In this document: piece after piece, positions 40,857 to 55,993 of the stretch | Layout: each line of letters begins with the position of its first letter | Position numbering within the stretch: position 1 is the stretch's first letter | DNA from: Candidatus Moraniibacteriota bacterium | GTDB taxonomy: Bacteria > Patescibacteriota > Minisyncoccia > Moranbacterales > GWC2-37-73 | Assembly: GCA_035390125.1 (NCBI GenBank) | Contig: DAOOTD010000002.1 | Span: forward strand, 41,908-105,907 | DNA: 64,000 nt | Reading direction: 5' to 3' | Notes under the pieces: generated by a model | What the model saw: only the letters and a program-made list of their open reading frames with translations | Database searches by the model: none | What the model was told of the DNA's origin: nothing | Made by a program: the position numbers and the translations under genes

Positions 40857-40937
40857 GGGGATATGGTGGAATTGGTATACACACACGTTTGAGGGGCGTG
40901 ACCGAAAGGTGTGAGGGTTCGAGTCCCTCTATCCCCA
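40857..40937 (+). tRNA. tRNA-Leu (anticodon GAG), type II
   Basis: Acceptor ggggata/tatcccc, same D-arm as the other Leu genes, anticodon loop ttGAGgg, T-arm gagggttcgagtccctc. Confidence 0.85.
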
Positions 40938-40946
40938 CGTGTTCAA

Positions 40947-41025
40947 AAGGATGTTTAGCTCAGTTGGCTAGAGCACTTCTCTTACAAAGAAGGGGTCACT
41001 GGTTCGAGTCCAGTAACATCCACCA
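40947..41025 (+). tRNA. tRNA-Val (anticodon UAC), CCA encoded
   Basis: Acceptor ggatgtt/aacatcc + a + cca. Anticodon stem-loop cttct-ctTACaa-agaag. Confidence 0.85.
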
Positions 41026-41040
41026 TGCAAAAAAGATAGA

Positions 41041-41113
41041 GCCGAAATAGCTCAGCGGTAGAGCGAAGGACTGAAAATCCTTGCGTCGGCAGTTCAACTC
41101 TGCCTTTCGGCAC
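41041..41113 (+). tRNA. tRNA-Phe (anticodon GAA)
   Basis: Anticodon stem-loop aagga-ctGAAaa-tcctt. T-arm ggcagttcaactctgcc. Confidence 0.85.
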
Positions 41114-41141
41114 ATTTTAAAAATCAAAGATTGAGCTAAGA

Positions 41142-41213
41142 GGGACCATAGCTCAGCGGTAGAGCAGGCGACTCATAATCGCTTGGTCATAGGTTCGAAT
41201 CCTATTGGTCCCA
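41142..41213 (+). tRNA. tRNA-Met (anticodon CAU)
   Basis: Anticodon stem-loop ggcga-ctCATaa-tcgct. Initiator versus elongator not resolved. Confidence 0.8.
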
Positions 41214-41228
41214 CAAGAATTTAAAAAT

Positions 41229-41300
41229 GCGGGTATCGTATAGTGGCTATTATACGTCCTTGCCAAGGATGAGACGGCAGTTCGATTCTGCTTACCCGCT
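41229..41300 (+). tRNA. tRNA-Gly (anticodon GCC)
   Basis: Anticodon stem-loop cgtcc-ttGCCaa-ggatg. The 3' end overlaps the stop of the recombinase gene. Confidence 0.85.
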
Positions 41301-42899
41301 CAGAAGTTCAAAAACGGCCTTAGATTGGGCTGTTTTTGTTTTATCTAAGGCAAAATTAGTCAGTTCTAACCTTGGACATTCTGCCTTTATGGTTTCCAAT
41401 CCTTTTTCAATGAGTTGGTATTGTTTTCTTAGTGTGATATCTAGCACGCCATCCTTGAGGGTGAAATCTGATCCCAAAGCCCGTAAAATGTTGGTTTTCT
41501 CGGTATAATCACCAACATTAAAATTATGTTTTGCATATACCGCAAACTTGAATGTTTTTTCGGTCAGTTCTAACCATTCATCGGCTCGCTGGTTTATGTC
41601 ATCTAAAGATTGTTGAATCTTGTCTTTTTCTTTCAGTAGGGTCGCTTTTCTTTCCTTGAATTCGTCATCGCCAATTAAATCCTTGTTGGCATTTTCGGGT
41701 GAGATGTAGATATCTAACAACTTATCAATCCTATCTTGGCATTTCTTCAATGCTTTTTGTTGGTTTTCAATCATTATGTTCCTATTATCAACTTCGAGTT
41801 CGTTATCTCGCCTTAAGATTTTCAAAGCATAATCCAAAAAACTTTTAGGTATAGTGATTTTATCCAACTTATCTGCAATCTGCTTGTTGATGTCGTTGTA
41901 GGTAATGGATTTTTGTTTGCAATTAACATTCAACTTCTTTCTAGTGCAGTTATGATAGATGAATGTTCGGACAACATTTTCGGTTTTTATATGCTTCAGT
42001 TTTAGTTGGGTAGTAATATGACATCCGCACTCACCGCAACGGATAGTTCCTCGATAGGGAAGAATTTTATGTTTTGTTTGTGGCTTAGTTTTATTTCCCA
42101 AAAGTCCTTGAACATAATCAAATTCAGCTTCGGTTATCATCGGTGTGTGATTTCCTTCATAAACCTTACCAGTCCATTCATATTTTCCACAATAAAAAGG
42201 ATTGGTAAAAATATCGTATCCATGGCTAGCGTGCAGTTTTATTTCTTGCCCCTTGCACATTCTTCGCAAACCCCATTCATTGTTGGCAATCTCGATAATT
42301 TTTGAAACAGAATAGTCGCCAGTTAACATCAAGTCCCACATCTTACGAACAATGGGGAATTTTACTTCATCTACAAAAATCTGTTTTTTACCTTGGTCTG
42401 TTCCTTTGTCATTTTTATATCCTATCGGTGCACGACCAGGTCTCCAGCCTTGCTCTGCCTTATTCAACAGTCCTCGTCGGACATCTTTTCCTAAATCAAT
42501 AACATATTGGTTCGCCATTCCAAATTCAACACTCATCATTATCACATTGTCTACGGTTTTGTATTCTCTGCCGACTGTTTGGATGGACTGGATGAGTCCT
42601 TGTTGAAGCAACCACATTATCTCACCACCATCAACGGGATTTCTTGCTAGACGATTTAACTTCCAGCATATAATTCCATCTGCCTTGCCTTGTTTAATAG
42701 CAGACAGCATTTTGTTGAATTGTTCCCGACCTGGCTTTTTCGCTGATTTGCTCTCTTGAAAAACACCGACAATTTTAACATCGAGATGGCGTGCTAATTT
42801 TTCCAGTTCTTTTTTCTGGCTTTCAATAGATTGCGTTTGACGATCTTCCGCTTCGGTACTTTTGCGAAGATACATCAGATATTTTTGTTTTGTTTCCAT
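41292..42899 (-). CDS. large serine recombinase (phage-integrase type)
   Basis: N-terminal resolvase catalytic domain (YLRKSTEAEDRQTQSIESQ with the nucleophilic Ser), recombinase domain, zinc-ribbon CGECGCH...C and a C-terminal coiled-coil. The stop overlaps the tRNA-Gly 3' end. Confidence 0.85.
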   Translation of the reverse strand: METKQKYLMYLRKSTEAEDRQTQSIESQKKELEKLARHLDVKIVGVFQESKSAKKPGREQFNKMLSAIKQGKADGIICWKLNRLARNPVDGGEIMWLLQQGLIQSIQTVGREYKTVDNVIMMSVEFGMANQYVIDLGKDVRRGLLNKAEQGWRPGRAPIGYKNDKGTDQGKKQIFVDEVKFPIVRKMWDLMLTGDYSVSKIIEIANNEWGLRRMCKGQEIKLHASHGYDIFTNPFYCGKYEWTGKVYEGNHTPMITEAEFDYVQGLLGNKTKPQTKHKILPYRGTIRCGECGCHITTQLKLKHIKTENVVRTFIYHNCTRKKLNVNCKQKSITYNDINKQIADKLDKITIPKSFLDYALKILRRDNELEVDNRNIMIENQQKALKKCQDRIDKLLDIYISPENANKDLIGDDEFKERKATLLKEKDKIQQSLDDINQRADEWLELTEKTFKFAVYAKHNFNVGDYTEKTNILRALGSDFTLKDGVLDITLRKQYQLIEKGLETIKAECPRLELTNFALDKTKTAQSKAVFELLSG

Positions 42900-44043: not shown

Positions 44044-44844
44044 TTACCTATAAGATAGCCATGCTTTATCGCTGTCAATTTTAAATTTAAATTTTTTATT
44101 AACATCATGTGCTGATAACAATCTCTGCAACTCTTTTATTGTTCCCTCAATTTTAAGTTTCTTGTAATTTTTTTTCAAATATTCATCAGCTTCATCCGAT
44201 GCATTTTTTTTGGTAAATCTCTTTATTTTTTCAAATAAATATTCCAAAGTTCGTGCTGTTCCAATAGGATTACAAAAAGATTTTAATAATTGATACTTGG
44301 CTGTTTCAGCGTTACCAACTTCAATATTTTTCTTATCAACCTTTAAATAACCGATCCCATTTTTTTCAAATGTGGCAACTTTTATTTTACTTGTTTTTTC
44401 CTTCAATTTTTCAATTTTATTGTTTCCTATTCGATAACTGGAATATTCTAATATTTTATTCAAGCTTTCTTTGAATTTACCAGCCTCGTTTTTATTTGCC
44501 TTAAACAATAATGGATGCGTGGATTTACAAATAATGTTAAATAGTATTTTCTTGTTTTTCTTGCATGAATAATAAAGCAATATATTATGAAGTAGTTTTT
44601 GTCTTGAGTTGAAATAATTTGTCTTTAAAGATTCAGCCATATAATTGAGTGTAGATATATGGCCATATAAATCTTTTTTTACACCGCATTCATTTAAAAA
44701 ATCGCCCATTTTTATGTGAGATTTTAAACTTTCTATGGCATTTATTTTTTTAGCAATAAGTTCCAATGACTGCTCATTTAATATACAGCCTTCTTTTTTA
44801 AGGGAGCTTACTGTTATTGCTAATTCAATTTCATTTTTAAACAT
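44044..44844 (-). CDS. hypothetical protein (Lys-rich)
   Basis: 266-aa ORF with no recognisable domain. Confidence 0.45.
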   Translation of the reverse strand: MFKNEIELAITVSSLKKEGCILNEQSLELIAKKINAIESLKSHIKMGDFLNECGVKKDLYGHISTLNYMAESLKTNYFNSRQKLLHNILLYYSCKKNKKILFNIICKSTHPLLFKANKNEAGKFKESLNKILEYSSYRIGNNKIEKLKEKTSKIKVATFEKNGIGYLKVDKKNIEVGNAETAKYQLLKSFCNPIGTARTLEYLFEKIKRFTKKNASDEADEYLKKNYKKLKIEGTIKELQRLLSAHDVNKKFKFKIDSDKAWLSYR

Positions 44845-44924
44845 ATATTTATTATTGATATTTTCTCACTAGATAGGCTTAAAAGCAAGATAAATGTTTA
44901 CTTTTAGCCATTTTTATATTACAT

Positions 44925-45078
44925 TGTAAGTGGTACCATACTCATATAGACACTGAGAGTAATCTCAGTAATTTTGCTTCATCACGCCTTTAAGCGGGCG
45001 GCTCGGCGCACATGATGGGGCATTTCGGTGTCTTTTGAGTGTGGTACCCGTCGGGTCGTCCACTCAAGCGGAACTTCT
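44925..45078 (+). ncRNA. GC-rich structured element; candidate ncRNA or cis-acting site
   Basis: A 13-bp long-range helix (GGTACCATACTCA at 44928 pairs with TGAGTGTGGTACC at 45035) encloses local hairpins. GC is about 50 percent versus about 28 percent around it. Ends at a strong terminator. Confidence 0.3.
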
Positions 45079-45112
45079 CGACGACTTAATTATTAAGTCG
45101 TTTTTTGTTTTT
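45079..45112 (+). terminator. rho-independent terminator
   Basis: acgacttaattattaagtcgt followed by T6. Confidence 0.75.
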
Positions 45113-45138
45113 AAAAAACAAATTACACAATAAAAAAT

Positions 45139-45489
45139 ATGGGTGTAATTGAATCAATCGGAGCTAACCGAGCAAGAATCATTTTCGATGATTTTTGTGT
45201 TAGATTATTTTTAAAATATAAAGGAAACTATTGCTCTGATGTTAGAATATGGAAATTATCAAAATCCAATATACTTTTTGGCATGTTTAATAGTAAAAAT
45301 TTATACTGGGCTGTTTGTGATGAGGCGGCCAATTCTTTACACGGTTGGTTTTATAAAGAAGGCGATCTACTTAAGTCATTGGCGCATAGAATAGAGCAAT
45401 GCTCTAATGAGAATGAACTGAAAAGATTGTGTCTTAATCTGGAAAATATAATTGAAAAAGGAATTCCATTAGATATAGGAGAATTTTAA
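45139..45489 (+). CDS. hypothetical protein
   Basis: 116-aa ORF, Cys-containing, no motif recognised. Confidence 0.45.
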   Translation: MGVIESIGANRARIIFDDFCVRLFLKYKGNYCSDVRIWKLSKSNILFGMFNSKNLYWAVCDEAANSLHGWFYKEGDLLKSLAHRIEQCSNENELKRLCLNLENIIEKGIPLDIGEF

Positions 45490-45490
45490 T

Positions 45491-45700
45491 ATGGAAAATA
45501 AAAAACATCGTCTCCAATCAAATTTCGAATTTATTGCTGAAACATCCTTGCGAGTAGTGCGAGCGTTTTCATATTTCTTTATGGTTGCGATACCCCTTTT
45601 GAATTATAAAGATCTGCGATTTTCAATTAAAACTATCTTGATTTGCTTGAGTTTGGTTTTTATTTCTAATAGACTACTTGGCAAAATTAGAAGCAAATAA
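45491..45700 (+). CDS. hypothetical small membrane protein
   Basis: 69 aa with one or two hydrophobic helices. Start is 2 nt after the previous stop. Confidence 0.35.
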   Translation: MENKKHRLQSNFEFIAETSLRVVRAFSYFFMVAIPLLNYKDLRFSIKTILICLSLVFISNRLLGKIRSK

Positions 45701-46130
45701 GGTTTTATCTAAAACGAATAATCGTGTTTGGTCGCGGATTCTAGCTATGCAAGATATAACAAAAAACGACCCTCTCTTTTTTGCGAAGGTCTTTTTTTAT
45801 TCCTCTTTTGTCACCAAAACACTCTCTTTTGGCTTTAAATAGCCAAAGATATAAAGTTATATGGCTGACCAGCCAAGACATCCTCTAGGGATGAAATAAA
45901 GCCTCCAGGGGCAGTGAGAGTGTCTCGCCAAATGGGCTTTTTGGCTAAAATAAGGCAAAGATTTCTTAATTAAACGATAAAAGGTTTTAAATAGCGGAAA
46001 TTATCGTGTTTGGTCGATTAATTTGTGTAGTATGATAACTGTTTAAAGAATTAATTATTATATAAGTTTATGGGTTAAAAAGCTATATATTGGCATAAGG
46101 CAATTTAAGTGATAAGCTAAAAATACAAAT

Positions 46131-47045
46131 ATGGCATTATTTAGCATACAAGGCGAGAAAACTAAAAAGATTTTATCTAAAAGCTTAGATTTAGAAAAAA
46201 AACTTCAAAAATTATTCGAGAATAATCTTGAAGACGTTTTGAATATCACTTTTTTAGCCCATGAATATTCCACAAGTTTTGGCGGAAGAATTGATACATT
46301 GGGAATAGATAAAAACGGATCTCCCGCAATAATAGAATATAAAAAGAACCAAAATGATAATGTAATTAATCAAGGACTCTCCTATTTGCGATGGCTTTTA
46401 GATCATAAGGCTGATTTTGAAATATTATGCAGAAATAATAAAGTTGCAGTTGAAATTGATTGGGATTCGCCAAGGGTTATCTGTATAGCAGAAAACTATA
46501 ATAAATTTGATATTGACACTGCGGATATTTTGCCTATAAATATTGAATTGCTAAGATATAGGATCTATGAAAACGATATTTTATCTCTAGACATAGAAAA
46601 TTATCAAAAAGTAAGAATTTCAACTTCTGGCATATTAAAGAAAGCAAGAAATCAAAAAGAGAAGCAGAATGTTCTTCAGAAAAATTATTTATTAGAAGAT
46701 CATCTGAAAAATGCGCAAAAGGAAATAAAATTACTTTTTTATAAGTTGCGAGAAAAGATCACAGCACTTGATGAAAATATTATTGAAGAGGCTAAGGCAA
46801 AGTATATCGCCTATAAAACTTCAACTAATTTTGTTGATATTGTGGTGCTTGGCAATAGTTTAAAAATATTTTTAAATGTGAAAAGTGGAAAACTTATTGA
46901 TAAAAATTCAATAGCCAGAGACTTAACTAAGCCAAAATCCGTTGGTCATTGGGGGAATGGTGATTATGAGGTAAAATTGCAAAGCGAAAATGATTTAGAA
47001 AAAGTTTTTGACCTAATAAAACAAAGTTATGGTTATAATAAATAA
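46131..47045 (+). CDS. PD-(D/E)xK nuclease-fold protein (NucS/DUF91-like core) with C-terminal extension
   Basis: GRIDTLGIDKNGSPAIIEYKKN...NVINQGLSYLRWL carries the D...D...ExK...Q..Y signature. Overlaps the downstream gene by 17 nt. Confidence 0.6.
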   Translation: MALFSIQGEKTKKILSKSLDLEKKLQKLFENNLEDVLNITFLAHEYSTSFGGRIDTLGIDKNGSPAIIEYKKNQNDNVINQGLSYLRWLLDHKADFEILCRNNKVAVEIDWDSPRVICIAENYNKFDIDTADILPINIELLRYRIYENDILSLDIENYQKVRISTSGILKKARNQKEKQNVLQKNYLLEDHLKNAQKEIKLLFYKLREKITALDENIIEEAKAKYIAYKTSTNFVDIVVLGNSLKIFLNVKSGKLIDKNSIARDLTKPKSVGHWGNGDYEVKLQSENDLEKVFDLIKQSYGYNK

Positions 47046-48348
47046 AACTATGTACCAAGTAAAAATACCTAAGATATTATTTTTAGCACTAGGGACAGCA
47101 AGATTTTATTATAAAGGTTATTATAATACAAATGATCTCGCTGGAATTGCAAATAAATATGCCGAACATCTCGTTCGTTTAAGATCAGACAAAAAAGATT
47201 ATAAGTATTTGGATGATACTAATTTTGGTGGATTAAGAGGAAATTTTTCAACACTTCTTACGTGGAAAGGGTTTGTTAAAAGGGGAAATGCCATAGTAAG
47301 TAGATATTATATTGGCAGGGATAAAAGATTGGCTAATGCAGTATGTAATGGTGAAATTATACTAAATGAGAGTAATATGACTGCGTATACTACAAATGAA
47401 AAATTAAAAGAACTTTTAGAATTAGAAGCATGGCTTTTCACCGTAAAGGAAACACAGGCACATATAAAAGTTATGTTAGGAAAAGATAAGAGCATACCTC
47501 TTTCTAGAGATAACGATAATTTCAAAAAAGTATCTGTCGTAAGGAGTGCAAATGGTCAATATTTTATAAGATCGTTAGTTAACAATTTTATTGATTCAAA
47601 AAATAAAGTTCTGGAGTACAGTATAGTTAATTTTTGGGAAGGAAAAAAGTTAAAGAAGAAAAATCTTCATCCATTAATAGTTATTCCTACGAAAGATACT
47701 CCTTGGAGTAAAATATTTGCAATAAAAATGGAAGATTTGATTGATAATAAACCTTTGACATTATTGGTTGATTTAGAAAAAGAAATTTGTTTTGATACGG
47801 ACAATAATAAATACAAGCTATATTCTCTAAGGGAAGCCGTTGACGAATTTACAACTGGAGATGAAAATATACCTCAAAGGCTTTCATATTCCTGGGAAAA
47901 AATAAAAGAGGCTCACTGTGATAAAGAAGCTGATTTTTCTGAAATCAAAGAAGATGAATTTATAATTTTTCTAGAGAAATTCCTCAAGTGGCAAAAAGAA
48001 TTTGAAGTTGGAGAAAAGAAAGTTGTGGGTGTAAATGTATCGAGCTCTGGTGGTCCCGATGTTCACTTAACATTTTCGGGTGGCACAGCCCAAAAATTAG
48101 AACTTGAACATAACTGGAAAAGCTACTTAGATCACAGGCATCACGAAAGTAATGCATGGGTAGATACATGGCTTTTTGCAGAAGAAGAATGGAATCCTAA
48201 AAGAATATTAAGTTTATACAAGACACATAGAAAAACCAATGGTCAAAGAATTCCTAATGTATTTTTATGTTTAGAAAGAGGAGAACGCAAGTGCTATGAA
48301 GCAAATTGGGATGAAGAAACATTTACAGAAATACCTTTAAAATTTTAG
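47029..48348 (+). CDS. hypothetical 439-aa protein, candidate second endonuclease subunit / specificity partner
   Basis: No family recognised. Possible D...ExK-like patch (PTKD...LLVDLEKE). Start overlaps the PD-(D/E)xK gene and the 3' end overlaps the convergent methyltransferase by 12 nt. Confidence 0.45.
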   Translation: MVIINKTMYQVKIPKILFLALGTARFYYKGYYNTNDLAGIANKYAEHLVRLRSDKKDYKYLDDTNFGGLRGNFSTLLTWKGFVKRGNAIVSRYYIGRDKRLANAVCNGEIILNESNMTAYTTNEKLKELLELEAWLFTVKETQAHIKVMLGKDKSIPLSRDNDNFKKVSVVRSANGQYFIRSLVNNFIDSKNKVLEYSIVNFWEGKKLKKKNLHPLIVIPTKDTPWSKIFAIKMEDLIDNKPLTLLVDLEKEICFDTDNNKYKLYSLREAVDEFTTGDENIPQRLSYSWEKIKEAHCDKEADFSEIKEDEFIIFLEKFLKWQKEFEVGEKKVVGVNVSSSGGPDVHLTFSGGTAQKLELEHNWKSYLDHRHHESNAWVDTWLFAEEEWNPKRILSLYKTHRKTNGQRIPNVFLCLERGERKCYEANWDEETFTEIPLKF

Positions 48349-49128
48349 TTTACTTAATTGATTTTTATTTTTTAACACAACTATTTTCGAGGTTGTGTTA
48401 TTTTTTTTCGCTCGATTTTTCATTATTTCAAAATATTCATTGTCATTCTCTATACTTATACTGTTCCTTTTTAATTGATCCGCTGAAGATTGAAGCGTTC
48501 CACTGCCGGCAAAACAATCTAAAACCCAGTCATTTTCATTAGTAAATATTTTTAGTAAGTGCTCTAAAACCTTGGCTGGTTTTTGAGTGGGATGTTTCGT
48601 TCTTTCATTGCCCATGCATATCGGAGTTTCTACAAAATCAGCCTTGATGTGATTATGCATTTCATTTTGCTTTGTAAAATTGAAAGTATAATCTATTTTT
48701 TTTTCATTAAATCCTTTCGTTGCCCATAAAATTGCCTCACATGAAGATAAAAAACCTGTTTTTCTAATTTGGGGGGCTGGATTAGTTTTGTGCCAAATAA
48801 TAGTAGCATGGTGTTTAAAATCATGCTTTTCATATATTCTTTTTATATCACTAATATATTCTAATTTGCTAAAAATTAACAAATTTCCAGATTCTTTAAC
48901 TTTATTTTTTGTATTCTTTATCCATTTATCAGTAAATAATAGATATTCATCATCAGAAAAATAATCCCACTTTCCAAAATCTGATGATCTAGCCTTTCTT
49001 CCTTTTAATATCTTGGTATTTTTATTAGCAGTATTGTAAGGAGGATCAACAATTACGGCATCGAATTTTTTATTGATTTTTGGCAAAATATCCAAAGCAT
49101 CTCCGAATATTAAATAATGTGAATTCAT
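48337..49128 (-). CDS. DNA methyltransferase, beta-class amino-MTase (N6A or N4C)
   Basis: Motif IV DPPY (AVIVDPPYNT) precedes motif I FxGxG (LDCFAGSGTL). Confidence 0.85.
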   Translation of the reverse strand: MNSHYLIFGDALDILPKINKKFDAVIVDPPYNTANKNTKILKGRKARSSDFGKWDYFSDDEYLLFTDKWIKNTKNKVKESGNLLIFSKLEYISDIKRIYEKHDFKHHATIIWHKTNPAPQIRKTGFLSSCEAILWATKGFNEKKIDYTFNFTKQNEMHNHIKADFVETPICMGNERTKHPTQKPAKVLEHLLKIFTNENDWVLDCFAGSGTLQSSADQLKRNSISIENDNEYFEIMKNRAKKNNTTSKIVVLKNKNQLSKLKF

Positions 49129-49133
49129 AAAGT

Positions 49134-49898
49134 TTATTTTTTTAGTCGTTTAAGTGAATCAATATAATAACCCTTGTCAACTTCAGAACCTATAAAATTT
49201 CTTTTTAATCTTTTCGCCACAACCGCAGTAGTCCCTGAACCCATAAAAGGATCGAATATAATATCATTTTCATTTGAAGTTGCTAGTATTATTTTCTCTA
49301 AAAGCCATTCTGGTTTTTGTGTAGGATGTATTTTTTTTCCTCCCGCAGTTTTTCCTCTTGTCAAAACAGCTTCTCCATACCACATGCACCTCATTTGCTT
49401 TCCGTGATTAATCTTTTTCATCTCACCATAATTAAATGTATTTTTTTTAGTTTTTCTTGCCCATATGAAATTTTCATGATCAGCTACAAATCTCGTACAA
49501 GACAAATTTGGTGTAGCATCAGATTTGTGCCATATTATTTCATTTAAAGGCTCAAGCCCTATTTTTTTTAATAAGTATCCTGTTAAATAAATATTATGAT
49601 AAGTTCCTGCAACCCATATTGCTCCTTCATTTTTTAATATTCTATAACATTCTTGTAGCCATTTCTTTGTAAATTCTTCGAATTCAATATCTCCAAAATT
49701 ATCCCAATGCCCTTTATTTGTGCTTAAATCAGAACCGCCAGATTTTATGAATTTTATCTTAAAATTGCTTTTGCTTAGGTTATAGGGAGGATCTGCAAAT
49801 ATCAAGTCAATAGAGTTGCTTTTAATTTTTTTCATTAATTTTAAGCAATCTTCATTGTAGATTTTATTTATTTTCAGTTTTTTATCTGTAAAAATCAT
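49134..49898 (-). CDS. DNA methyltransferase, beta-class amino-MTase (N6A or N4C), second copy
   Basis: IFADPPYNL then FDPFMGSGTTAVVA. Lies 5 nt upstream of the other MTase. Confidence 0.85.
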   Translation of the reverse strand: MIFTDKKLKINKIYNEDCLKLMKKIKSNSIDLIFADPPYNLSKSNFKIKFIKSGGSDLSTNKGHWDNFGDIEFEEFTKKWLQECYRILKNEGAIWVAGTYHNIYLTGYLLKKIGLEPLNEIIWHKSDATPNLSCTRFVADHENFIWARKTKKNTFNYGEMKKINHGKQMRCMWYGEAVLTRGKTAGGKKIHPTQKPEWLLEKIILATSNENDIIFDPFMGSGTTAVVAKRLKRNFIGSEVDKGYYIDSLKRLKK

Positions 49899-50465: not shown

Positions 50466-51368
50466 TTGTTATCCACAACAAATATGTCTGATGGTGAAGA
50501 ACTTAAAATCTATATAGACGGATCTGCTATAACAAATCCAGGAAAATTAGTTGGATGTGCGGGAATAGTTTGCTATCCAGAATTCCTTAATATCCCAAAC
50601 AAAGAGCTCAGATGGTCCTACTCATTGGGGTCAATTGGCAGCATGGAACTTCTGGCTTTGATAAATGCTTTAAAGTGGATTAACAAAAATGTAGCACATC
50701 TTCTTGAAAATTCTATAAGTTCAATATTAATCCTAAGTGATTCTGACTACATTGTTAGTTCGGCCAATTCATGGGTCTATAAATGGAGCAATCCATGGAA
50801 TAAAAATAAATGGAAAAAATCTGATGGTGGTACGGTTAAACACGAGAAATTATGGAAAGAATTTCTAAAAGAACGTAAAAAAACACGGATCAATTTCAAT
50901 ATTACAATTGAATGGATTGAAGGCAAGAGTACCCAAGAGACGAAAAGTGTCGATAAGGCAGCAAAAAGATCAGCAAGAAGTCTGGTGAAAAAGCCGAATT
51001 TTGAACAAATGCCTTATAAACAAGGGCGATCTTTACTGGGAAAAAAATCAAAATTAGAGTTATTTCTTGAAGTTGGAGAAACACACTTAATAAGAGTTTA
51101 CTCTCATTGTTTAGTCAGTAGAAAAAAAGATGCCGAATGTGAAGTTAGATTTGAGGTGATTAAAGACAAAAGCATCGAAGGAAGATTTAAAGCTTTCACA
51201 TCTCAGAAAATAGGTATTAGCAATATTGATAGGGGGCATTATTATTATGCGACTTTTGCTGACAATAAAATATTGCCGTGGATTGATAAAATAGAAGAAA
51301 TTGAAGAAAAAGAGGTTGAAATTATTAAGAAAAAGGCAAAGACCATAATAAAAGCGAAAACTAGTTAA
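50466..51368 (+). CDS. RNase H (type 1) domain protein with about 130-aa C-terminal extension
   Basis: DEDD-type pattern: IYIDGSA..., SMELLALINAL, ILSDSDYIV, KSVDKAAKRSA. Alternative start at 50484. Confidence 0.65.
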   Translation: MLSTTNMSDGEELKIYIDGSAITNPGKLVGCAGIVCYPEFLNIPNKELRWSYSLGSIGSMELLALINALKWINKNVAHLLENSISSILILSDSDYIVSSANSWVYKWSNPWNKNKWKKSDGGTVKHEKLWKEFLKERKKTRINFNITIEWIEGKSTQETKSVDKAAKRSARSLVKKPNFEQMPYKQGRSLLGKKSKLELFLEVGETHLIRVYSHCLVSRKKDAECEVRFEVIKDKSIEGRFKAFTSQKIGISNIDRGHYYYATFADNKILPWIDKIEEIEEKEVEIIKKKAKTIIKAKTS

Positions 51369-51439
51369 GATAAAGCACCTTGTAGGGTTGATTCAATTGT
51401 ATTAGGATATTAATATGTTTAGACAATATTTTTTACCAT

Positions 51440-51522
51440 AAATCCAGTTCTAACCGTATTAACTAGCCCGCTCAGGTATAAATTTACGGCTTTGTTAAGC
51501 CGTATTTTTGTTGTGGTATAAT
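51440..51522 (+). promoter_or_regulatory. cassette module A: 19-nt boundary motif + palindromic operator ACGGCTTTGTTAAGCCGT + extended -10 TGGTATAAT
   Basis: Operator 51486-51503, TATAAT 51517-51522. Same module recurs at 52209, 53200, 55932 and 57671. Confidence 0.7.
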
Positions 51523-51547
51523 AGAAATATAAAATTAAAATAAAAAA

Positions 51548-52171: not shown

Positions 52172-52208
52172 CAATGCATTTAAAATTTTAAATAAGGAAT
52201 TCTCCCCT

Positions 52209-52291
52209 AAACTCATTTCGAACATCATCTGCTAATGGGCTCACCTATGAATTTACGGCTTTTTTAAGCCGTATTTTTGTTGTGGTATAAT
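52209..52291 (+). promoter_or_regulatory. cassette module B (operator ACGGCTTTTTTAAGCCGT + TGGTATAAT)
   Basis: Operator 52254-52272, TATAAT 52286-52291. ATG lies 6 nt after the -10, so leaderless geometry. Confidence 0.7.
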
Positions 52292-52297
52292 GAAAAC

Positions 52298-53182
52298 ATG
52301 AATTCTATGAATCCAGAATGGCAAAAGCAAAAGATAGAAAAACAAGAAGCCAAAATTAACATTGGAGATGTTTATTTTAGTGAAGGCTTAAAATCTGTTT
52401 TTGAGAAAGAGGAGTTTGAGAATGAAATACTAAAAATAAATAAGGAAATCGAAAAATACTTGGGAGAGAATAAAAATTCAGCCGTTTACGATTTTAGGAT
52501 ATATGACAACAGAAAAGAATATGAAGAATATTTCAGAACCAATTATCCAGAAAAATCTGATTATATGGAAAATGACATGGTTTTTTATTCTCCAGATGAA
52601 AAACATAATAAAAATGTTATAGCTAAGTTTATGGAGCAAGCGACCTTAGATCCAAATGATTTAAAGATTCGAAAATATCTCGAAAAAGAAAAAATCAAAT
52701 TCGATGAGTTAGAGGCTTTGTCTAAGCAGAATTATAAAAATAATATTTATCCAACAATAGCACATGAATTAACTCATTCTCACCCATTTTTTAAAGGAAT
52801 GGATAATAAATCATCTAGAAGTAAATGGGAACAAGAAATGGTGTGTGTGTTTATTGACCAAAAAATGTGGGAGGAATATGTTCCATCCTATGGCAAAATG
52901 ATAAGAACAAAAGCAAAAGATCAATCTTTAGGTAGAGATTTGTTTGATGAAATCATTAAAGATTTTGAAGAAGGTGATTTTCAGGTTGAAGACTGGGAAA
53001 GGCTTTTTTACAACTTTTTGGAAAACAGACATGGCAAAGAAAAATTAAAAGATTTTTGGAATATTTTGGCCGAACTAAAAGACAAAGCTAATTTTGAACG
53101 ATGCTATGAAAAAATTTTTAGAGAAAATTTGAAAGATGCTATGATTATATTTCAAGAAAGAATAACAACAGATAAAATTTAA
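52298..53182 (+). CDS. HExxH-motif protein (putative zinc metallopeptidase)
   Basis: IAHELTHSHPFF. The track ORF start at 52277 is an artefact that reads through the promoter (TTG TTG TGG TAT AAT). Confidence 0.5.
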   Translation: MNSMNPEWQKQKIEKQEAKINIGDVYFSEGLKSVFEKEEFENEILKINKEIEKYLGENKNSAVYDFRIYDNRKEYEEYFRTNYPEKSDYMENDMVFYSPDEKHNKNVIAKFMEQATLDPNDLKIRKYLEKEKIKFDELEALSKQNYKNNIYPTIAHELTHSHPFFKGMDNKSSRSKWEQEMVCVFIDQKMWEEYVPSYGKMIRTKAKDQSLGRDLFDEIIKDFEEGDFQVEDWERLFYNFLENRHGKEKLKDFWNILAELKDKANFERCYEKIFRENLKDAMIIFQERITTDKI

Positions 53183-53199
53183 ATAAAGCTCTTATTCAC

Positions 53200-53310
53200 A
53201 AACCCAGTTCGAACGTCATCTACTAAGGGGCTCAGTTTTCTAAATTATGGCTTGCTAAAGCCATTTTTTGGTATTAGACATTGACATAATTATTAAAAAT
53301 ATACTATCAT
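53200..53310 (+). promoter_or_regulatory. cassette module C (boundary motif + variant palindrome ATGGCTTGCTAAAGCCAT + TTGACA promoter)
   Basis: Boundary motif 53200-53218, palindrome 53247-53264, consensus -35 TTGACA at 53281. Confidence 0.55.
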
Positions 53311-53961: not shown

Positions 53962-54045
53962 AAAAATCCAATTTGATATTAAAAAAAGCCGAAAACCTGG
54001 ATTCAAGTCGTAGGCTTTTTTATTTTAAATAAAACATTTTTTCAT

Positions 54046-54064
54046 AAACCCAGTTCAAACGTCA
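54046..54064 (+). repeat. boundary motif AAACCCAGTTCAAACGTCA (copy D, without operator module)
   Basis: Identical 19-mer directly after the stop of the alpha-CTD-like gene. Downstream promoter differs (TTGACA at 54098 and 54118). Confidence 0.8.
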
Positions 54065-54217
54065 TATACTTAAGTAATTATTTAATAACACTTTAAATTG
54101 ACATTTAGGCTGTGATCTTGACAAATTAGCGCAGAAAGAGGACAATAGAAAACTAATTAGAGGAAAGTTTTTAGTAATTTTAAAACAAGTTCGAAATTCG
54201 AACAGAGAGGTGCAATA

Positions 54218-55812: not shown

Positions 55813-55931
55813 TTAGCTTAATGTTTTAAATCTAAATTCTATTTTTAAATAAAAAACTTCCATTTTGGGAGTTTTTTATTAATATTTATTTATATTTAGA
55901 GCTTCTGAATAAAAGCAGATAGGGCACATTT

Positions 55932-55969
55932 ACTGCTTTGTTAAGCCGTATTTTTTGTTGTGGTATAAT
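55932..55969 (+). promoter_or_regulatory. cassette module E (operator ACTGCTTTGTTAAGCCGT + TGGTATAAT)
   Basis: One-mismatch palindrome 55932-55949, TATAAT 55964-55969. Confidence 0.65.
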
Positions 55970-55993
55970 GAAAAATGTAAATTGATAAATAAT

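Follow-up and report, generated by a model that had tools for sequence, protein, structure and literature searches.

This report concerns a compact four-gene module in a window of 64,000 nucleotides (nt) from a Candidatus Moranbacteria genome (contig DAOOTD010000002.1, positions 41,908 to 105,907 of the forward strand), the window being the whole stretch of DNA that was analysed. The core of the module is probably a three-gene Type II restriction-modification (R-M) system for an asymmetric site, which most resembles the Type IIS systems. In this system, a protein of 439 amino acids (aa) would act as the restriction endonuclease and two small methyltransferases, M263 and M254, would modify the site. 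The fourth gene encodes a 304-aa protein, hereafter S18, which would be an accessory nuclease and not a subunit of the endonuclease. The four genes, as delimited by open reading frame (ORF) calling, are the following:

46131-47045, plus strand: S18 gene, 304 aa
47029-48348, plus strand: putative restriction endonuclease gene, 439 aa from the ATG at 47029 (432 aa from the ATG at 47050)
48337-49128, minus strand: methyltransferase M263 gene, 263 aa
49134-49898, minus strand: methyltransferase M254 gene, 254 aa

The evidence for the three-gene core comes from related loci, which were collected by eight contig look-ups and by scanning one genome per species, followed by ORF calling and phmmer searches. 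This yielded 26 distinct loci with enough downstream sequence and 31 copies with both methyltransferase genes. Without exception, the 26 loci, which belong to Patescibacteria, Omnitrophota and gut Bacilli, contain a homologue of the 439-aa protein followed by two convergent methyltransferase genes. The gene arrangement is not due to chance because it recurs in every related locus with enough flanking sequence. An initial annotation had already regarded the four genes as an R-M module, and this view is supported. However, the roles that it had given to the two forward proteins are reversed, as the constant partner of the methyltransferases is the 439-aa protein and not the 304-aa protein.

The methyltransferase pair occurs in two forms. 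One form consists of an M263-like and an M254-like enzyme, the latter usually being fused to LexA_DNA_bind and Peptidase_S24 domains. The other form, which is also present in the loci of the gut Bacilli, consists of a D12 alpha-class enzyme and a large N6_N4 enzyme and is not homologous to the first. Since these non-homologous pairs accompany endonucleases that are about 56% identical, two methyltransferases are apparently required. Strand-specific methylation of an asymmetric target, which had been proposed from the window, fits both the constancy of the pair and its replacement elsewhere by the D12 and the large N6_N4 enzymes. Judged from gene order, the pattern is the signature of a Type II restriction gene whose target needs two methyltransferases.

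The gene upstream of the endonuclease gene is variable and encodes an HTH_3 protein, a MazE/AbrB-type protein, a member of the 304-aa family or an unrelated protein. A C-type HTH_3 gene (HTH, helix-turn-helix) abuts the start of the endonuclease gene in six loci, and HTH_3 controllers were seen in the relatives L001, L005, L011, L014, L024, L042 and L021. These genes represent the classical controller-endonuclease layout. In two further cases (L017:131-319 and L027:5729-5917), a small gene of the MazE/AbrB type is found 80-100 nt ahead of the endonuclease gene, where other loci have the HTH_3 gene, and it possibly serves as a different kind of controller. Moreover, in L039 (6007-7073) the endonuclease gene has broken up into ORFs of 131 and 195 aa and both downstream methyltransferase genes are intact, which is the typical decay of a toxic restriction gene. 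A shortened endonuclease ORF of 360 aa is present in L024.

ORF calling reproduced all four genes of the initial annotation at the same coordinates. The minus-strand genes are arranged in the order M254 and M263 and are separated by a 5-nt spacer. The convergent overlap of 12 nt between the endonuclease and M263 genes that had been described is genuine and lies inside the palindrome TAAAATTTTA. The stop codons of both genes overlap within this palindrome (48337-48348), so that both proteins end with -LKF, and convergent overlaps of 4-11 nt were seen again in the homologous loci L001, L003 and L010. By contrast, the 17-nt overlap that had been reported for the forward genes exists if the ATG at 47029 is used and vanishes if translation starts at 47050, in which case a 432-aa protein would be made and a 4-nt spacer would separate its gene from the S18 stop codon (47045). 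In the alignment, 36 homologues of the 439-aa protein start at the residue matching the ATG at 47050, which is the more likely start codon according to this comparison. The tight packing of the four genes holds with either start codon. A further element was detected 25 nt past the endonuclease stop codon, within the 3' end of the M263 gene:

48373-48400, plus strand: terminator-like hairpin with a T-run and a 10-bp stem (found by a consensus scan only)

Both methyltransferases match PF01555 (N6_N4_Mtase), M263 with E = 1.5e-39 and M254 with E = 6.6e-55. The beta-class order of motifs, with DPPY preceding FxGxG, was confirmed at residues 28-31/206-210 and 36-39/218-222, respectively, which correspond to the following positions:

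49036-49047, minus strand: DPPY motif of M263
48499-48513, minus strand: FAGSG motif of M263
49782-49793, minus strand: DPPY motif of M254
49233-49247, minus strand: FMGSG motif of M254

The DPPY motif favours N6-adenine over N4-cytosine methylation, from which it follows that both methyltransferases are probably N6-adenine enzymes. The solved structure closest to M263 is that of M1.HpyAVI (5HFJ/5HEK, E = 5.5e-36), one of two methyltransferases that accompany a putative restriction enzyme in a Type II system (PMC5173035). For M254, the closest structure is that of CcrM (6PBD, E = 1e-59) and M.MboIIA was matched as well; by sequence similarity, M254 is a CcrM/HinfI-like beta-class enzyme. Orthology to CcrM was rejected for both proteins, as M254 and M263 reach 255 and 137 bits, respectively, against the cut-off of 830 of the NCBIfam CcrM equivalog NF050803. 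Thus, GANTC specificity should not be assumed.

In most related loci, the CcrM-like methyltransferase carries the LexA_DNA_bind and Peptidase_S24 domains at its N-terminus (L001:8052-9434 on the minus strand, L005:8063-9493, L011:7032-8432 and L044:6933-8456), and a LexA-fused methyltransferase also adjoins a TaqI-like endonuclease. M254 in the window (49134-49898) has no such fusion. The LexA-type autocleavage fusion would place a self-cleaving repressor on the methyltransferase and possibly ties R-M expression to DNA damage.

The 439-aa protein has 190 close homologues of about 433 aa, every one of which is annotated as hypothetical. They are encoded in metagenome-assembled genomes of Patescibacteria (candidate phyla radiation, CPR) and Omnitrophota. 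A hidden Markov model (HMM) search against 1.84 billion representative proteins returned just 29 matches, comprising four full-length clusters and fragments without a named member, and the family therefore appears to be small and isolated. The impression that the protein matches nothing recognisable was borne out, as no match was obtained in Pfam, NCBIfam, PADLOC, PHROGs and, with the single sequence as well as the profile, PDB, and no relative was found in the plasmid, phage and IMG/VR collections searched.

The AlphaFold2 model of the 439-aa protein has a mean predicted local distance difference test (pLDDT) score of 85.6. On the two sides of a low-confidence linker (residues 302-308) lie an N-terminal region of about 300 aa and a C-terminal alpha/beta domain of about 130 aa. 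Residues E310, P343-D344 and E358-L-E360-H361 as well as further histidines are invariant in the alignment of the homologues. In the model, the elements around this motif are ordered as helix, three strands, helix and strand; D344 opens strand 2, and E358 and E360 are located in strand 3. The C-terminal fold has a putative PD-(D/E)xK topology with the ExE variant of the motif (E...PD...ExE), which we take to be BamHI-like. The parts of the gene are as follows:

47029-47931, plus strand: N-terminal region of about 300 aa, presumably for DNA recognition
47953-48345, plus strand: predicted C-terminal PD-(D/E)xK-like cleavage domain, residues 309-439
47956-47958, plus strand: codon of the invariant residue E310
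48058-48060, plus strand: invariant residues P343-D344
48100-48108, plus strand: invariant motif E358-L-E360-H361

The N-terminal region contains an invariant loop, D63-T-x-x-G-G-x-R-G-N-x-S74, in the alignment; residues 52-66 form a strongly conserved yet disordered loop, which is followed by the GGLRGN motif. With Foldseek, this region gave weak matches of the winged-helix type alone (PadR, TrmB and ArsR; E 0.3-2). With moderate confidence, the 439-aa protein can be regarded as an endonuclease in two parts, built in the manner of the Type IIS enzymes and representing a family that has not been described. The likeness of both forward proteins to nucleases, as originally noticed, is therewith supported. 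The 439-aa protein, which had been suggested to be a novel cleavage or specificity subunit, has a putative catalytic motif of its own, and a heterodimer with S18 is not supported.

The family to which the 304-aa protein belongs is catalogued. The PADLOC model PDC-S18 (PDLC04946) matches the protein end to end (residues 2-301, E = 1.8e-97), and Pfam DUF5655 (PF18899) matches with 46 bits against a cut-off of 24. S18 is composed of a NucS-like PD-(D/E)xK domain at the N-terminus and DUF5655 at the C-terminus. The nuclease core that had been recognised in the initial annotation proved to be invariant in 33 homologues (E45, D55, E69-x-K71, Q81 and Y85). The two domains are represented by the following features:

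46293-46343, plus strand: S18 catalytic core, D55 ... E69-Y-K71, invariant in the 33 homologues
46695-47036, plus strand: DUF5655 domain, residues 189-302, with the invariant GHWGNGDYE (Pfam match and alignment)

The AlphaFold2 model of S18 has a mean pLDDT of 69, with values of 85-97 in the DUF5655 domain, whose fold resembles the C-terminal domains of YdhG, YjbR and MotA. This YdhG/YjbR-like domain probably binds DNA. Residues 121-183 (window 46491-46679) are highly conserved, for instance Y123, K125, F126, D127, E139-R144 and Y158-K160, and have a pLDDT below 50 despite this conservation; they may constitute an interaction surface or a segment that folds upon binding. The family is large, with at least 2361 matches; among the best 120 of these, identities range from 71 to 100% and lengths from 301 to 304 aa. 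S18 shares the catalytic fold alone with NucS/EndoMS, lacks the N-terminal DNA-binding domain of NucS and possesses DUF5655 instead. Furthermore, the PF01939 (NucS_C) score of 17 bits stays below the cut-off of 24, and the scores of 14-20 bits with the NCBIfam NucS equivalogs fall far short of the cut-offs of 216-252 (NF003270, 19.7 against 216). S18 was therefore rejected as a NucS orthologue.

The initial annotation had combined the 304-aa nuclease and the 439-aa protein into a heterodimeric enzyme of the BbvCI type. Such an enzyme, in which each protein cuts one strand in the manner of BbvCI/Bpu10I or BspD6I/BtsI, is very unlikely. For an enzyme in the style of BbvCI and Bpu10I, two homologous subunits with one catalytic site each would be expected, and both subunit genes should always accompany the methyltransferase genes. 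By contrast, S18 adjoins the gene for the 439-aa protein in eight of the 26 loci, in three different arrangements, and is absent from the other 18; in L009, L013 and L003 it lies past the methyltransferase genes or is divergently oriented. The profile-profile comparison of S18 with the 439-aa family using hhalign gave a probability of 0.4%. The phylogenies are incongruent as well, since the endonucleases of L016 and L021 are 76% identical and their S18 proteins 42%, the corresponding values for L003 and L009 being 79% and 38%. A further comparison is provided by L021 and L042, of which the endonuclease and both methyltransferases are 99.5% identical. In L021 (1870-4303), the HTH, S18 and endonuclease genes are packed with gaps of 1-3 nt and S18 is in the middle, and in L042 (5633-7296) a 764-nt deletion has removed most of S18, of which a stump remains between the HTH and endonuclease genes. 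Moreover, S18 proteins that are 72-78% identical adjoin self-sufficient EcoRV-like, TaqI-like, AlwI-like, Type I, Type IIG and Type III systems. S18 was also rejected as a cognate sequence-specific endonuclease, given that this level of identity is maintained while the adjacent methyltransferase families differ completely. The idea of an undescribed defence effector riding with the methyltransferases can be kept for the 304-aa protein alone, as PDC-S18, and has to be abandoned for the pair.

S18 also accompanies many other restriction systems. In three random look-ups, it was located directly upstream of a TaqI-like endonuclease and a LexA-fused methyltransferase, of a Type III mod/res pair (preceded by an HTH gene) and of a Type IIG fusion enzyme. 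A census of 80 independent metagenome loci extended these cases. In 35 of 65 census loci, a gene on the same strand follows S18 at a distance of 1-12 nt, and at least 27 of 65 immediate downstream (+1) genes encode R-M components recognised by Pfam (N6_Mtase 8, N6_N4 6, EcoRI methylase 5, EcoRV endonuclease 4, D12 3 and AlwI 1). The second downstream genes add Methylase_S, D12, GmrSD, HNH, AlwI and DpnI. Motif IV of the amino-methyltransferases was found in 32% of the +1 genes, compared with 5-10% at positions -4 to -1, +2 and +3, and the gene upstream of S18 belongs to HTH_3 in 19 of 71 cases. Thus, S18 heads or sits within Type I, II, IIG and III operons and also adjoins Type IV genes. In Proteobacteria, DUF5655 proteins that are 30-37% identical to S18 of the window are encoded between hsdS and hsdR of Type I operons, namely on the Cupriavidus plasmid NZ_CP038637.1 (L128:4986-5918) and the Acinetobacter plasmid NZ_CP047974.1 (L129:5001-5912). 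A homologue of S18 is present on 15 Acinetobacter plasmids, and a Staphylococcus plasmid with a DUF5655 gene has no annotated R-M gene near that gene. In the literature on PDC-S18, DUF5655 and PF18899, we found no report of a function or of a linkage to R-M systems. The link between S18 and restriction is not accidental. Its operon position before the +1 gene, the enrichment of methyltransferases at +1, the site between hsdS and hsdR and the site between the HTH and endonuclease genes in L021 suggest that S18 is co-regulated with restriction genes, which does not prove joint action.

From the gene content, synteny, motifs and fold similarities, which are observed, a conditional scheme can be drawn up for the module. 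M254 and M263 would each methylate one strand of the asymmetric sites of the host, the modified base being N6-methyladenine (m6A). The N-terminal region of the endonuclease would bind the unmethylated site and its C-terminal PD-(D/E)xK-type domain would cut the unmethylated DNA; with a single catalytic centre per endonuclease, cleavage would involve transient dimerisation or would amount to nicking. The nuclease activity of either forward protein, the asymmetry of the site, the cleavage position and any role of S18 are inferred parts of this scheme. S18, the active site of which is intact, would be co-transcribed with the endonuclease gene. It would be a sequence-non-specific nuclease that has been recruited repeatedly to the head or the interior of restriction operons of every type. 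Since S18 hardly varies from one type of R-M neighbour to the next, it cannot read the R-M specificities and is unlikely to bind each partner specifically. Instead, it would most likely act on something common to all restriction, in parallel to or after restriction, either by degrading restriction-generated ends or damaged DNA or as a back-up when a phage countermeasure evades restriction.

A more far-reaching version of this scheme can be put forward only tentatively. S18 would be a type-independent restriction cofactor, which is co-regulated with the restriction genes, often by the same C-type controller, which acts on the products or the failure of restriction and which operons of Type I, II, IIS, IIG and III have acquired independently of each other across phyla. 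The 439-aa protein would in addition establish a new family of Type IIS endonucleases, the specificity of which would be new as well. It is also conceivable, though again rather doubtful, that S18 is a self-contained defence gene, for instance a Type IV-like modification-dependent nuclease or a sensor-nuclease, that shares only an operon or an island with R-M genes. However, the short distance to the next gene on the same strand, the enrichment of methyltransferase genes specifically at +1 and the sites between hsdS and hsdR and between the HTH gene and the endonuclease gene of L021 are not the island-random positions that such a gene would occupy. We give very little credence to S18 being a nuclease of the mobility or homing type by which R-M cassettes are spread. 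PD-(D/E)xK homing endonucleases exist, the module is tied to serine-recombinase islands, and S18 is 72-78% identical across CPR lineages while the downstream cassette varies. However, no terminal repeats or conserved flanks were found, S18 lies inside Type I operons, and it is placed under C-type HTH genes in the style of a restriction gene.

It is furthermore unlikely that the 439-aa protein is a specificity, regulatory or anti-restriction factor, with cleavage being performed by S18 or by no protein at all, as in an orphan methylation module. The invariant E...PD...ExE residues on canonical secondary-structure elements, the convergent layout with C-type HTH genes abutting the gene for the 439-aa protein and the broken gene in L039 beside intact methyltransferase genes all argue against this explanation. 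Moreover, most loci are devoid of S18 and would then have no nuclease.

Several points weigh against the three-gene Type IIS-like system with S18 as an accessory nuclease. The tight coupling of the S18 and endonuclease genes in the window leaves room for some functional interaction of their products, which is possible. ExE in place of ExK is uncommon, and the hhalign comparison of the FokI cleavage domain with the 439-aa family yielded a probability of 0.2%. No HTH gene or remnant was detected upstream of S18 (44800-46200) or anywhere else in the window. The role proposed for S18 is read from association only. Finally, the recognition site could not be inferred, as the Markov-corrected avoidance of 4-6-mers was uninformative both in the window and in 240 kb of related loci. 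None of the candidate sites, which included GAGTC, GANTC, GAGG, GAAGA, GGATG and CCATC, was depleted in this test.

The most under-represented 5-mer in the window is TAAGA/TCTTA (z -4.5). It is also depleted in the pooled loci (L001-L043), with z -8.2 or -8.0 in the set with the beta-class pair and z -4.4 in the set with the other pair, and this is probably a compositional or codon effect. GATC and GGCC are depleted as well, and none of these depletions was tied to a system.

The following genes are located on one side of the module:

41229-41301, plus strand: tRNA-Gly, the last gene of a cluster of five tRNA genes (40857-41301)
41292-42899, minus strand: large serine recombinase gene, 535 aa, overlapping the 3' end of tRNA-Gly

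The GC content is lowered to 27-31% across 43-50 kb of the window, including the module, and serine recombinases are also encoded near the homologous R-M systems of L001, L003, L009 and L010. The low-GC stretch, the overlap of the recombinase and tRNA genes and the recombinases near homologous systems imply that the module is mobile, and tRNA-Gly and the recombinase likely mark the edge of a mobile island carrying it. A search for a second copy of the 3' end of tRNA-Gly (attachment or att repeat), made to delimit the island, found none.

DNA upstream of S18 is conserved among the loci solely in L006, a contig of the same species that encodes S18, endonuclease and methyltransferase proteins identical to those of the window. 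The 350 nt upstream of S18 (window 45690-46135 and L006:4940-5285) are just 87.7% identical, and a 36-nt imperfect direct repeat is present upstream of S18 at 45699-45734 and 45981-46016. Directly past the module, at 50466-51368 and also in L006, a 300-aa protein with an N-terminal RNase H domain (E = 1.5e-18) is encoded, the C-terminal 130 or so residues of which have no assignment. Further downstream, an intergenic cassette is repeated between small genes (51409-51545, 52178-52302, 53178-53270, 54024-54070 and 55928-55992). The copies are 64-96% alike and each consists of the hairpin ATTTACGGCTTTGTTAAGCCGTATTTTT followed by TTGTGGTATAAT, which together resemble a terminator with an extended -10 promoter behind it.

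It is difficult to detect restriction endonucleases by their sequence, and the 439-aa family is a well-supported candidate for a new endonuclease family of about 430 aa that occurs only in uncultured Patescibacteria, Omnitrophota and some gut Bacilli. Given the probably asymmetric site, a tool enzyme with a new Type IIS specificity could be obtained from the family. The most interesting by-product is that PDC-S18 is associated at the operon level with all restriction types, between C-type and restriction genes. With 72-78% identity over hundreds of lineages, S18 is among the most conserved R-M-linked genes of the CPR. If S18 cooperates with restriction, it would represent a general and undescribed layer of R-M biology, and the shredding of DNA from restriction-made ends would be useful to nucleotide-scavenging CPR bacteria. 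If it does not, the module would amount to an R-M system of the ordinary kind on which a defence candidate hitch-hikes.

Compared with known systems, S18 extends what is listed for PADLOC PDC-S18, which is a single-gene candidate in that catalogue and which is here, and in 80 other loci, linked in operons to many R-M types. A nuclease gene embedded in a restriction operon as a back-up effector is likewise known from the anticodon nuclease PrrC in the EcoprrI Type I operon; S18 is found within or at the head of R-M operons, and in Proteobacteria its homologues lie between hsdS and hsdR. The association of PrrC with EcoprrI is a specific protein-protein latch. However, S18 and PrrC are unrelated, and S18 is predicted to be a nuclease for DNA. 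Moreover, it accompanies all R-M types, which speaks against a specific latch of this kind. The endonuclease would be FokI-like in its predicted two-part architecture, in which a flexible linker leads to a C-terminal domain of about 130 aa that holds the only catalytic centre. Membership of the FokI-type cleavage domain family was nevertheless rejected because there is no profile similarity. In its size of about 430 aa and its predicted build, a recognition region followed by a small C-terminal cleavage domain, the endonuclease resembles Type IIS enzymes such as MboII and FokI. The layout of the module recalls the Type IIS systems with two methyltransferases (MboII with M1/M2.MboII and HpyAVI/MnlI with M1/M2.HpyAVI), in which one endonuclease gene is likewise found beside two small beta-class methyltransferase genes. 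MboII pairs an m6A enzyme with an N4-methylcytosine (m4C) enzyme, whereas both methyltransferases of the window carry DPPY, and other loci of the 439-aa family use the D12 alpha-class and large N6_N4 enzymes instead. Unlike the endonucleases of the MboII and HpyAVI-type systems, the 439-aa protein has no detectable sequence relative outside its own family and no Pfam RE_* match. An R-M system of Type II/IIS that includes two methyltransferases is not new in itself; the novelty lies in the family of the putative endonuclease.

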